In this document: piece by piece, positions 4,174 to 61,634 of the stretch
Position numbering within the stretch: position 1 is the first letter of the stretch
Layout of the letters: each line of letters starts with the position of its first letter
Assembly: GCA_964016885.1 (NCBI GenBank)
Contig: OZ024742.1
Location: 285,882,001 to 285,946,000, forward strand
Length of the DNA stretch: 64,000 nt
Origin: Eledone cirrhosa
Taxonomy: Eukaryota
Direction of reading: 5' to 3'
Notes under the pieces: model-generated
Database searches by the model: none
The model's input: only the letters and a program-made list of their open reading frames with translations
What the model was told of the DNA's origin: nothing
Program-made: the position numbers and the translations under genes

Positions 4174-4379
4174 AGGAAAAGGTATGACCCCGACAGCAGA
4201 GCTCAAGCCGTTTCGACGGCTATTTCTGGACTCAAATAGCTGTCCAGAAATAGCCGTCGAAACGGCTTGAGCTCTGCCGTCGGGGTCATACCTTTTCCTA
4301 TTACCCACTCTACTACCCTAAGTATTGAGTACTCTGGTGCGTTATGGTCCATCTGGTTCCTTACCACAATTCCTTCGTT
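4174..4379 (+). mobile_element. Fold-back PLE pLTR insertion in (TA)n carrying the 3' half of a hammerhead
   Basis: 4174-4231 is inverted against 4242-4299; GAAAC-GGC...GCC-GTC stem III and cleavage triplet; flanked by TA repeats. Confidence 0.75.
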
Positions 4380-5299
4380 ATATATATATATATATATATA
4401 TTATATATATATATATATACATGTGTGTGTGTGTGTGTGTGTGTGTGTGTGTGTGTGTGTGTGTGTGTGTGTGTGTATGTGTGTGTGTGTGTGTGTGTGT
4501 GCCTGCGTACGTGTGCGTGTGTGTGTGTACCTAAATGTATGTTAATACCCAAAGGAAGCCACATACGTACATATAAAAACTGTTATTTTAGAAATCAATC
4601 TCTCGTGTGTCAGACAGTTTATACAAACAAGGATATAGATTGTTATCAACCTATGTTGCATTTATAATTTAATCCTGAATATATTTTCATATCAGTAGTT
4701 TCTATCATTTTACTTTATACTTTCTAATTTCTATCTCATGAATGTGAATAGATTGTCATCTACAGAAACATCATCTTGCCTCTTCATATCAATGTAATTT
4801 TTGTTGACGATCGATGCTGCTGTCTTCTTTTGTCTTCTATTAGTATTCATATTATTAATATTATTATTATTATATTAAATGGGTGGTATATTGGCAGTGT
4901 CGGTAGGGCGTCGGAAAAATGGTTTGTGGCATATAGTTATGTCCCTGTACGTTCTGAATTCAAACCCCCTAGGTTGTCTTTGCCTTTCATCCTTACGGGG
5001 TCGATAAAATAAAGTACCAGTAACGCACTGGCGTCGATTTAATCGTCACCCTAAATTGTTACTTTGTGCCTGAATCAAAAAATCATTATTAAGGTGGTGA
5101 CTTGGCAGCATCGGTTGAACCTTGGACAATATGCTTTGCGGCATAGAGCTACGTCGCGAAGTATTTTCTACCATCACCCCAGCTTTGTCAAACCGTTGTA
5201 AGAACTGTGATACTGACGAGAACTGTGTAGAACTCTGTCTGAAAGTCCATTCTTGTATATAGATCATACACTTTATTTGGCGCCCCTTTTAACAACACC

Positions 5300-5850
5300 A
5301 CTTGCCCTTGGATATCATTAGCTGAGCTTGGTAAGTTAGTCTGGGCGTGGTTGTCATTTCCTGATCTCGGTAAGTTAGGCTGGGCTTGGATATCATTAGC
5401 TAAGCTCAGTAAGTTAACGTGGGCTTGGATATCATTATCTAAGCTCAGCAAGTTAGTCAGGGCTTGGATGTCATTAGCTGAGCTCAGTAAGTTGAGCTGG
5501 GCTTGGTTGTCATTAGCTGAGCTCAGTAAGTTAATGTAGGCTAGGATATCATTAGCTAAGCTCGGTAAGTTAAGCTGGGCTTGGGTGTCCTTAGCTGAGC
5601 TCAGTAAGTTAAGCTGGGTTCGGATGTCATTAGCTGAGCTCAATAAGTTCTTCAGGGCTTGGTTATCATTAGCTGAGCTCGGTAAGTTAGTCTGGGCTTG
5701 GATGTCATAAGATGAGCTCGGTAAGTTAGGTTGGGCTTGGATGTCATTAGATGAGTTCGGTAAGTTAGGCTGGGCTTGGATGTTATTAGAGGAGCTCGGT
5801 AAGTTAGGCTGGGCTTGGTTGCAATTAGCTAAGCTCAGTAAGTTAAGCTA
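5300..5850. repeat. 39-bp minisatellite, about 14 units
   Basis: Unit ggatrtcattagctgagctcrgtaagttaggctgggctt; minus frame gives a 13-aa repeat SSANDIQAQLNLL. Confidence 0.95.
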
Positions 5851-7286
5851 AATCTTTGCCCAAGAATTATTTTTGTTTTATTCAAACTAGTTTGTGGTTG
5901 ACCTAGAAAAAATAATGGCACTACAGATTTTAAAAATACCCAGGACACGATGTATTTCACTGCGATGCTCCGAGGGTTCAACACCCGTAAACGCGTACAT
6001 CCAGTTTCTGGTTTTAAGGCGGTGAGTTGATACAATCATTACGGCGTCGGATTAAAGATACCTTGGTATTTTTTCTGGCTCATTACGTTATGAGTTCAAC
6101 TCGCACCGCGGTCAACTTTGCCTTTTATCTATTCGGGGCCCTTAATTTAACTACTAGTCCAATACTGAAGTCGATCTTTTCCTCTATCTCTTATTATCAC
6201 TTCCTTCTTTTATTTTTTTTTATTTTTCTCTGGAAGAAATTGATTGTTCCGATTTGTGTGTCAGGACGGCGCCCCTGCGATTCTATCAGGTGTTAGGATT
6301 CCTTTACCTTAGTATCTCGCTGGTCCTGAAAAGCCATCAAGGTGCTGCCATCCTCGTCTTACTGACTAAGCCATTACAACCCCACTTACACCAAAAAAAG
6401 GAAGAAGAAAGAAAATGAAACATGAATAATTAAACAACACTAATTTAGATTTTTTTTTTCATTCCAGCAAAATTTACCATTTTTTTTTTTATTCAGCCTG
6501 AAATATCATTCCAACTGTGATAATCCAGTTTGAAAAAGAAGACAAAAATCACAAAAGAAATCATAAACACAAACAAATAAATCAGTGTTTCTTCTGTTAG
6601 TCACGTGATCATTGGATCAGATGGCGCTAATTGTTAGCAAGAGTAACTGAGTAGGTTTAATTGTTTTGATTCTATTATATATATATATATATTGTTTTAC
6701 ATCTCTCTCTCTCGTTCTTTAAAACATTTCTCTAAAGTCAACGACAACCAATCAACTACTTATAATTCCAATCAATATTTCCCTGTGGACAAAAACCAAA
6801 CCAGGCTTTCTATTTTTTATTTTTTTATTTTATTTATATTTTGTTTTCTTCTTATTCCAAAAGGTGGATGTTAAATAGGTTTCTATCGTCAAATCAATCA
6901 ATTAAATGAGATCGGAAATAATTGTGATTTCAGAAAATGTCACATGCCTCTAGTAATTAAATTATAACACGAAATTTTAATTTTAAGACAATTTTATGCA
7001 TTTTTTTTCTCTCTTTTTTTTTTTATTTAAATAGTTCAAGAATTATGAAGCGTTGTATTTTTTAAAATCTCGTATGTGTGGGGGTATGGGCAGGCGATTG
7101 GGTAAATGAAATAAAAATACTCAATACAATTAAATTAAACTTTATAGATTTTATTTCACATTTTCAGTTTAAAAAATTATAGCTCTCTCTCTCTCTCTCT
7201 CTCTCTCTCTCTCTCTCTCTCTCTATATATATATATATATATATATATATATATATATATATATATATATATATATATATATATAT

Positions 7287-7337
7287 GGCTTCCTGATGAT
7301 TTCTCCCGAATGAAACAGTTCTAGTCCTGTAGAAGCC
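7287..7337 (+). ncRNA. Type-I hammerhead ribozyme motif inserted in (TA)n
   Basis: ggcttc-CTGATGA-t-ttc-tccc-gaa-t-GAAA-cag-ttctagtc-ctg-TA-gaagcc; SINE-truncated relative at ~58051-58180. Confidence 0.85.
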
Positions 7338-7541
7338 ATTTCTGTATTAAATGCATATATATATACATATATATATATACAGTATATATATATATACAGT
7401 GTATATATATATATATGTGTGTGTGTGTGTGCGTGTATGTATGTGTGTGTGTGTGTTTAACTCTGCAATGGCCGGTGTCTTGTCCAAAGGTTAGTCTTGA
7501 ACCCTCATTCGCTTCACCCCACGGAAACCAGGAAAAGCCCC

Positions 7542-7588
7542 AGCCTGATGATCCATCGGACTCGAGACAGACTTTAGAAGTTGTCGCT
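7542..7588 (+). ncRNA. Degenerate hammerhead-like motif
   Basis: agc-CTGATGA-tcc-atc-gga-ctc-GAGA-cag...ttg-TC-gct; GAAA altered to GAGA. Confidence 0.45.
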
Positions 7589-7659
7589 ATCAATCGGAAA
7601 ATTTATTCCGTGGCATTCCTCGCTTTCTACGACCTCGTTTCCATTATAAAATTGTTAAA

Positions 7660-59904: not shown

Positions 59905-59990
59905 TGATAAGTGGCTAATGTGGCTGAGTTGGTAGCAGCTAAGTATACTAACCTCAGGACTATAACGCTACATGGTTCGAATCTCACACT
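59905..59990 (+). mobile_element. tRNA-like SINE head or tRNA pseudogene
   Basis: A-box TGGCTGAGTTGG and B-box GGTTCGAATC without a good cloverleaf. Confidence 0.45.
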
Positions 59991-60183
59991 CTTCTCTATA
60001 TGGCCGGTGGAGTTATCTCTTACTCTTTTAATTATATATGTGCATATGCACATGTATATATATATTATATATACATATTATATATATATATTATATATAA
60101 TATATATATAATATAATATATATATTATATAATATATATATATACATATTATATATAAATATTTATTATATAATATATATATA

Positions 60184-60640
60184 TTAGAATTGGTGCTCTG
60201 AAATAGCGATATATATTTTTTTATATCGCTATTGTTTTAAAGTAGTGACAATGTCACTTCTATTACTGGAATTCTATAAGAATCCAACATTCATAATTTT
60301 CAGCAGACAAAATACACTATATATACATTCATATATATATATCGCTATTTCAGAGCACCAATTCTAATTTTCAATTTTTGCTGGACCGGCAACCGCTCTG
60401 GATAATCAGGTCCTGATTATTACTGGAATTCTATAAGAATCCAACATTCATAATTTTCAGCAGGCAGGAGGAGTGCTGAGCTTTGATAAGTAACAACAAG
60501 TAAGAAACAGAGCCCTGTCAGCTTATCTCCCCTTGTTTGCTGAAAATAGAAGTAAGTGACACTGTCACTACTTTAAAACAATAGCGTAAGGTCTTCAAAA
60601 TGTTTTTAATTAAGCATACAGTGTATTGCAAAATGCACTA
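60184..60640 (+). mobile_element. ORF-less pLTR-like element (homologue of 32280-32565) preceded by scrambled self-fragments
   Basis: Shared atcgctatttcagagcaccaat..ttgctggaccggcaa; decayed hammerhead agct-TTGATAA..GAAA-cag..ctg-TC-agct at ~60479-60524. Confidence 0.75.
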
Positions 60641-60793
60641 TATATACATTCATATATATATATATATATATTATATAATATATATATATTATAAAATATA
60701 TATATATATATATTATATATATATATATATATATATATATATATATATATATATATATATATATATATATATATATATATATATATATATATA

Positions 60794-61057
60794 TAGTATA
60801 AAAATCGAAAAATCAGTGATGCATCTGGACTCAGTTTATTGCATGTAACAATTGTTTCGACGGCAGGTAGCTCGAGACATGATCACTGTATGGATCTGGC
60901 TGATTCTACGGCTGCAGGTGCCTTCGGACACATGCAATTCTTTCAGACTAAATTTTCTCACTCAGTTTTTTTATACTATTCACACTCTGCTCTGTAAGAA
61001 TATTGAGTGCTAATTTTGGCATACCGCCTATGGAAGCACCATAGCTACCATTATATA
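60794..61057. mobile_element. Fold-back pLTR insertion with hammerhead-like motif at 60839-60937 (-)
   Basis: Minus strand ttgcatgtgt-CCGAAGG...GAAACAATTGTT-acatgcaa; tagtataaaaa mirrored by tttttatacta at ~60969. Confidence 0.65.
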
Positions 61058-61186
61058 CACACACACACACACACACACACACACACACACACACACACAC
61101 ACACACACACACACACACACACACACACACACACACACACACACACACATATATATATATATATATTTATATATATATATATATAT

Positions 61187-61634
61187 GTAAAAGTTCTATT
61201 TAAATTGTTAGGATACAACAAGCAAATATTTTTATAACTGATATAAAGCACTCAACAAATATTTGGAGTAAAAATACGATATTAACAAATGGAAACTATA
61301 TTTATAAAACCCTATTTATTTCATTATACATATTTCAAGGATACCAAGTAAAATTATCGTGTGCTTTCATCAGATAAAATACAATATAGATCAGTTTTAT
61401 AAATAAATATTGACATATCCTTAAAAAATGCAACCATTACTGTTGGAAGCTCCCGGGAGCTTCCAACAGTAATGGTTGCATTTTTTAAGGATATGTCAAT
61501 ATTTATTTATAAAACTGATCTATATTGTATTTTATCTGATGAAAGCACACGATAATTTAACTTGGTATCCTTGAAATATGTATAATGAAATAAATAGGGT
61601 TTTATAAATATAGTTTCCATTTGTTAATATCGTA
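61187..61634. mobile_element. Spacerless 360-bp palindrome (61275-61634) of a pLTR with two hammerheads (61317-61381 -, 61528-61592 +)
   Basis: Centre ggaagctccc|gggagcttcc at 61454/61455; related to the 12172-12430 family; flanked by TA tracts. Confidence 0.9.

Follow-up and report, generated by a model that had tools for sequence, protein, structure and literature searches.

A conserved bulged hairpin beside the 3′ ends of Hydra-clade Penelope-like elements in Eledone cirrhosa

Introduction

Penelope-like elements (PLEs) are the closest retrotransposon relatives of telomerase, and their internal start-site choice and optional 'tail' are the questions addressed here. In the endonuclease-bearing (EN+) Hydra clade (Craig et al., 2021, PMC8557442), one open reading frame (ORF) encodes a reverse transcriptase (RT) and a GIY-YIG endonuclease with RW[K/R], DKT and CxCX5C motifs, a hammerhead ribozyme lies in the pseudo-long terminal repeat (pLTR), (TA)n is the target, 5′ arms are inverted and a tail is optional. 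The PLEs analyzed here are alike in all these respects; they differ in their tails, which are 30–40 nt in the described elements and 60–100 nt here, where two hairpins explain them. We examined 64,000 nt of the Eledone cirrhosa genome (OZ024742.1, positions 285,882,001 to 285,946,000; 'the window'), which has abundant (TA)n and contains many short PLE ends, and followed a motif found there into the rest of the genome.

PLE priming has been studied in vitro in another clade. With the Poseidon element PAc, reverse transcription starts internally on the sense RNA at two sites that coincide with the genomic ends, and it depends on RNA that lies 3′ of these sites (Frangieh et al., 2024, PMC11167929); this one in vitro study narrowed the binding motif to 172 nt only. 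For the eel element UnaL2, a 3′ hairpin is required for retrotransposition and is common to the non-autonomous partners (PMC1636434).

Results

Hairpin structure and covariation

A preliminary description of the window had noticed a TTGAGYRCY motif downstream of the ribozyme in several pLTR families. The motif is indeed conserved, but it is only the 3′ arm of the element, a conserved bulged hairpin in the pLTR and 5′ untranslated region (UTR) of Hydra-clade PLEs. The hairpin runs RCTC, stem, loop, stem, a bulge (UU, UA, UC or UG) and GAGY, mostly followed by RC, and RCTC lies upstream at every true site. The intervening bases form a second stem and leave two bases unpaired (the 2-nt bulge).

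A stem-blind test, in which sites were chosen by the 3′ motif and the distance to a microsatellite only, gave 393 sites in 59 clusters, 19 of them with at least two loci. RCTC was present upstream in 16 of these 19 multi-locus clusters; in the other three the motif, which is close to a palindrome, had been read on the antisense strand. A 2-nt bulge leaves an upper stem of at least 2 bp in 14 of the 16 medoids, and bulges of 0, 1, 3 and 4 nt do so in 6, 0, 0 and 6. The stems covary across families: pairing is Watson-Crick in 53 of 64 cells compared with 32 after shuffling, and none of 10,000 shuffles reached 53 (the families are related and the count is not phylogeny-corrected). Among 30 hand-listed hairpins, with loops of 3 to ~90 nt, the closing pair is A-U in 16 and G-C in 14, and the pair above the bulge is C-G in 16 and U-A in 14. 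Pairs were listed by hand, rather than by a covariance model or pair-count tool, because MAFFT fails to align the 5′ arms across the variable loops. The window and three full UTR loci returned nothing from Rfam at gathering score, with only microsatellite noise and one weak hammerhead match.

Variants of the hairpin were seen at individual loci. Family 10 shows a double change at a pair that is fixed elsewhere, and so do L210 (minus strand), L422 and L423 (GTTC/GAAC; GCAC/GTGC without the bulge). In a Hydra-like family at L265 the hairpin seemingly has a 1-nt bulge, and the element again ends 6–8 nt before the hairpin. Readings of the motif as a splice site or an initiator (Inr) were dropped: there is no fixed GT/AG, and both leave the covarying stem unexplained.

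Element ends and the second hairpin

In most families copies end at either of two 3′ positions, immediately ahead of hairpin 1 or 60–100 nt past it, and only 5 of 565 end matches (matches, not unique copies) fall within a hairpin. With ends taken from −30 to +8 only, the commonest junction was at −6 to −10 at all 18 hairpins that had at least two ends (23 hairpins were measured; the other five had none or one). TA microhomology at the junctions spans 0–6 nt and is most often 3.

With a hairpin behind each of the two ends, full-length 5′ UTRs contain two hairpins, and the intervening stretch is thus the 'tail'. The site cited at 11777 belongs to family B, in which two ends come before the cited site and each precedes a hairpin. 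A second hairpin past each distal end was predicted before the search. In family A two sets of ORF-anchored loci had it, at 11 of 15 and at 11 of 12; copies that lacked it were truncated, inverted or mutated. Family C gave 354 genome matches and none in the reversed control (with a pattern lacking the upper-stem requirement), and family H gave 272 and none. Family M also has a second hairpin (by eye), and so does one read-through copy each of E and N. The full-length family C copy L420 has both a Hydra ORF and a second hairpin. The distance from hairpin 2 to the ORF ATG is variable, ~16–70 nt.

Placement relative to hammerheads and (TA)n

Enrichment was assessed in 1 Mb of unselected DNA from the 3-Gb genome, sampled as 100 stretches of 10 kb at even spacing, in which our own descriptor located 99 hammerheads. 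The bare motif TNGAGYRC is at background in this sample (194 occurrences vs 193–213 in five shuffles). Relative to the 99 hammerheads, however, it occurs 16 times downstream on the sense strand (11,053 nt) and never downstream on the antisense strand, with 2 sense (19,188 nt) and 4 antisense occurrences upstream; the strict TTGAGYRCY gives 4, 0, 1 and 1 for downstream-sense, downstream-antisense, upstream-sense and upstream-antisense. The check proposed in the preliminary description, by position and strand around hammerheads, thus yields enrichment downstream on the sense strand, which supports its view of a conserved cis element. Motif and hairpin together occur 45 times in the 1 Mb (9–13 in shuffles), and 35 of 37 sense-strand hairpin matches lie 40–79 nt before a (TA)n junction.

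Host elements

Elements were assigned to the Hydra clade by motifs and tblastn identity. They have a single ORF comprising an RT with a C-terminal GIY-YIG domain, RWK-like and DKT motifs and a CxCX5C linker. A type I hammerhead is present in the pLTR (found by descriptor scan and missed by Rfam, with the variant cores of families B, C and G recognized by eye), and (TA)n insertion, an inverted 5′ arm and an optional tail are all seen. Hydra-type ORFs are linked to families A, B, C, F, H, I, M and O. Those of B and C have 709 and 717 aa, the latter matching B at 53%; A, F, H, I, M and O were assigned by an N-terminal match. Family E is tied to a Hydra ORF only via its likeness to C.

Among 22 hammerhead families with at least two copies, the copy scanned has an RCTC/GAGY hairpin downstream in nine and a variant in one; one (B) ends before the hairpin, and 11 had none in the scan, one of these being positive under a looser rule. 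One hairpin-less family follows a Neptune/Nematis-type endonuclease. Hairpin-less families are a weak control, since copies may end before a hairpin.

The hairpin is not confined to E. cirrhosa. In six Hydra consensi of File S7 of Craig et al. (PMC8557442) judged by eye, it is clear in three (Hydra-2_Amil from a coral, and Hydra-2_Ajap and Hydra-1_Ajap from a sea cucumber), near in one (Hydra-1_Crog, copepod) and weak in two (Hydra-1_Amil and Hydra-1_Obim); Hydra-1_Ajap has two copies of it before the ATG. In the Naiad/Chlamys consensi, none of the 21 motif matches inspected by eye, out of 40, stands in a clear hairpin, which is not a full test. A Pfam GIY-YIG search led to Neptune/Nematis-type ends, whose 3′ UTRs mostly reach past the loci.

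Several features of the host elements were noted alongside. A canonical-core hammerhead pattern gave no matches for family C, the core of which is a variant, and a DNA search with family C returned nothing, its words being too common. By eye, the family C hammerhead (L420:30-135) appears to be a U3-A8 core variant with an extended stem III and a GUC site; a U3-A8 variant has been described for Schistosoma (PMC4209133). The family B core is CAGAAGA (U4A; L296–L307) and that of family G CCGAAGG (L124). Family C also forms ~3.53-kb head-to-tail arrays (G000:C1:437200354-437210985 and C1:91476591-91487256), with an intact 717-aa ORF in the single unit read. Different PLE families are nested within one another's (TA)n tracts and are folded back close to the ribozyme (window 12306–15178 and 61269–61640, and many other loci).

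The window

All nine 10-mers cited in the preliminary description are present at their positions (minus-strand figures give the low coordinate), and eight mark a real element. The ninth, 7971, is a look-alike and not a homologous site; the real site of that family is a TA-GAGTGC hairpin at 8010–8034, mutated in this copy. Within the window the exact TTGAGYRCY occurs eight times vs 3.3 in shuffles, and 2 of 200 shuffles reach eight; by itself the motif is weakly above chance. The families had been called otherwise unalignable, but 12223 and 61246 belong to one family and 4325 and 49365 can be aligned, and the nine sites reduce to six or seven independent families.

The orientation downstream of the ribozyme was correct, judged by other copies, although the copy at 11777 is truncated and has no ribozyme: the ribozyme at 12353 belongs to a neighboring element. 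Similarly, the hammerhead at 49587 is on the opposite strand from the site cited at 49365 and belongs to a different element. An ATG within about 10–20 nt after the motif had been reported for four families; the one at 11758 alone is shown to be an ORF start. The ATG near 12223 and 61246 is not a start, the family A ORF beginning past the second hairpin and beyond the element end. Three true sites were absent from the earlier list (11841–11885, minus; 19606–19651, plus; 32711–32736, minus), and a motif at 63152 has no 5′ arm. The features are as follows.

4250..4296, plus strand: 3′ half of the family C hammerhead (approximate limits); the 5′ half is replaced by a fold-back
4307..4330, plus strand: hairpin 1, family C (Hydra clade); cited 4325 is the bulge and 3′ arm; the element ends 54 nt past the bulge
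7971..7980, minus strand: cited look-alike in the family A2 tail, lacking a 5′ arm
8010..8034, minus strand: true hairpin 1 of family A2, with one 3′-arm substitution in this copy
8090..8158, minus strand: hammerhead, family A2 (approximate limits)
9683..11758, minus strand: Hydra-clade RT and GIY-YIG ORF of family B, in pieces; ATG at 11758; RW[K/R], DKT and CxCX5C as in PMC8557442
11781..11796, minus strand: hairpin 2, family B, with a C-UUCG-G loop; cited as 11777; family B copies have their distal end 6 nt before it
11841..11885, minus strand: hairpin 1, family B; the proximal end lies 6–10 nt before it
12227..12246, minus strand: hairpin 1, family A; cited as 12223
12296..12361, minus strand: hammerhead, family A (approximate limits), situated 1.5 kb downstream of the remnant of a Hydra endonuclease
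19606..19651, plus strand: hairpin 1 of a short family B copy ending at the distal site
32711..32736, minus strand: hairpin, family J; the element ends ~80 nt further; no ORF link
45965..46060, minus strand: hammerhead, family D, in an inverted arm (approximate limits)
46123..46142, plus strand: hairpin 1, family D, with the 5′ arm mutated in this copy; cited as 46137
49347..49370, plus strand: hairpin 1, family E (a relative of C); cited as 49365
58048..58095, plus strand: hammerhead, family F, 5′ part cut (approximate limits)
58116..58134, plus strand: hairpin 1, family F (Hydra clade); cited as 58129
60984..61008, plus strand: hairpin 1, family G; cited as 61003; no ORF link
61250..61269, minus strand: hairpin 1, family A subfamily; cited as 61246
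61316..61381, minus strand: hammerhead of the same family A subfamily copy (approximate limits); an inverted arm, core at 61536 (plus), stops just before the hairpin

The window also contains a C-rich Neptune-like PLE (50941–54001, minus; hammerhead at 49587, minus) with an 822-aa RT and GIY-YIG frame (50941–53409, minus) and an overlapping upstream 293-aa frame without a Pfam match; an RCTC/GAGY hairpin is absent before its end. A non-Hydra family (L259, minus; window 366, minus) has ends ~46 nt apart and, by eye, an AC-rich stem-loop in the tail, like that reported for PAc. A SINE-like repeat (short interspersed element) of ~200 nt is abundant, with 22 or more copies between 4966 and 58074 (families D16–D19). 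A 39-bp tandem repeat with at least 12 copies occupies 5229–5927 and leaves an open 219-aa frame on the minus strand. Fragmented ORFs at 42338–43556 (plus) resemble a decayed mobile-element protein; the piece tested had no Pfam match.

Discussion

We think it likely that the hairpin, with element ends 6–10 nt before it, acts in the sense RNA as an anchor bound by the RT-endonuclease for an internal start of reverse transcription. The element protein would bind both the 2-nt bulge, which begins with U, and the CUC/GAG pairs, which are invariant; ~3 nt (0–6) of the nicked (TA)n target would anneal to the AU-rich linker that lies 5′ of the hairpin; and the annealed target end would prime cDNA running away from the hairpin. 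Use of hairpin 1 would give the short end, and use of hairpin 2 the long end, whose 60–100-nt tail would carry hairpin 1. Short ORF-less copies retaining hairpin 1 would then remain copyable in trans. Of the roles suggested in the preliminary description, ribonucleoprotein recognition and priming fit the fixed spacing of the ends; transcription and translation fit worse because the distance from hairpin 2 to the ORF ATG varies and hairpin 1 is farther away. As an RT-binding cis RNA element, the hairpin has the covarying bulged stem-loop near the element end, and its protein binding and its requirement for mobility are putative.

A number of observations weigh against this interpretation. Internal G-U and A-C pairs stand at 3 to 3, a count that sense RNA, antisense RNA and single-stranded DNA fit alike. 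RNAfold energies are only −2.8 to −12.5 kcal/mol, and the predicted fold at times differs. Families D, G, A2 and J have no link to a Hydra ORF. The range over which junctions were scored was restricted, and the second hairpins of B, I, E and N were recognized only after the ends had been seen. The distal end of family F is followed by a short degenerate stem without a bulge, and a read-through pattern with the full hairpin gave no matches for this family. For families D and G the pattern search found no read-through copy; four apparent matches for D proved to be hairpin 1 of family G, and the single match for G was unrelated. Finally, the in vitro data come from another clade, with start sites in an AC-rich stem-loop (PMC11167929).

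A broader interpretation is possible, and we offer it tentatively. The hairpin may be a clade-wide, portable RT-positioning module, the mirror image of the telomerase template boundary element (TBE), bound by the related N-terminal domain. A Hydra protein would then prime internally, at (TA)n, any RNA in which an AU linker precedes the hairpin of at least 16 nt; tandem hairpins would explain the Penelope 'tail'; and other PLE clades would use equivalents of their own.

It is unlikely that the hairpin acts instead in DNA, in single-stranded cDNA or an extruded pLTR, where the GIY-YIG endonuclease would bind it and cut 6–10 nt away, resolving tandem intermediates, so that the ends would be cut sites rather than priming sites. 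The end geometry is the same; GIY-YIG enzymes cut at a fixed distance; GAGYRCTC is nearly palindromic; and the G-U/A-C count fits single-stranded DNA as well as RNA. However, the asymmetric bulge and a stem closed over loops of up to ~90 nt require a single strand, and the UUCG tetraloop of family B is typical of RNA. Tails have been ascribed to EN-mediated resolution (PMC8557442), and tail-dependent DNA recognition by the D. virilis EN is cited in PMC11167929, although in PAc both ends are RT start sites on RNA (PMC11167929).

We consider it quite improbable that the hairpin, close to where the ORF starts, works as a translational operator or a promoter element, with its link to the ends a by-product. 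In all ORF-linked families examined, hairpin 2 does precede the ATG within the 5′ UTR, and a protein bound there could also repress translation. The spacing to the ATG nevertheless varies over tens of nucleotides, while that to the end is held at 6–10 nt, and hairpin 1 obeys the same end rule far from the ATG.

There is only a slim chance that the template is an antisense RNA, on which the mirror hairpin would serve as a telomerase-like template boundary that stops RT, making the ends termination sites. A helix beside the template bounds telomerase synthesis (PMC4993307), an antisense template has been proposed for PLEs (PMC3846280), and the G-U/A-C count is neutral. Set against this, the 3′ ends are fixed and 5′ truncation and inversion vary, a pattern that fits sense-RNA priming, the template in vitro is sense RNA (PMC11167929), and TA microhomology is located at these ends. 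Inheritance from a common Hydra ancestor without present function, or chance, is scarcely credible: all ORF-linked families do belong to one clade and the bare motif is at background in the 1-Mb sample, but covariation already contradicts it, with compensatory changes and constant end spacing among UTRs that can no longer be aligned, and elements of cnidarians and echinoderms also have the hairpin.

The hairpin is short and covarying, predicts where elements end within 5 nt across many families, and is seen in three phyla; it lends itself to a direct mutational test. It also provides a rule for locating element boundaries and assigning ORF-less repeats to a helper, and it bears on RT-RNA recognition in telomerase ancestry. 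The preliminary description knew of no account of the motif, and a full-text literature search, to which subscription papers and supplement figures were out of reach, likewise found none. No description of the hairpin appears in the available portions of PMC11167929, PMC8557442 (in which the word 'hairpin' occurs 0 times), PMC4209133, PMC3846280 or bioRxiv 10.64898/2026.07.22.740005.

The PAc system (PMC11167929) is alike in its two internal start sites that define a tail, its need for RNA 3′ of the start and its AT-rich target. [quoted passage not shown] The 3′ stem-loop of UnaL2, one of the stringent long and short interspersed element (LINE/SINE) pairs (PMC1636434), is likewise a bulged RNA hairpin near the element end. 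It is part of the 3′ tail that is copied and is upstream of the priming site, whereas each hairpin described here stands 6–10 nt beyond its paired end, so it is not within the copied 3′ tail and would be left uncopied by the event it directs. The telomerase TBE, ciliate helix II (PMC4993307), is alike as a short helix with conserved bases beside the template, a ruler bound by a related RT. The TBE lies 5′ of the template and stops synthesis, whereas the hairpin here lies 3′ of the start on the sense strand (on an antisense template it would lie 5′). In function, the hairpin may work like the RT-recognition stem-loops of stringent LINEs and the ruler helix of telomerase, but from a position beyond the priming site.

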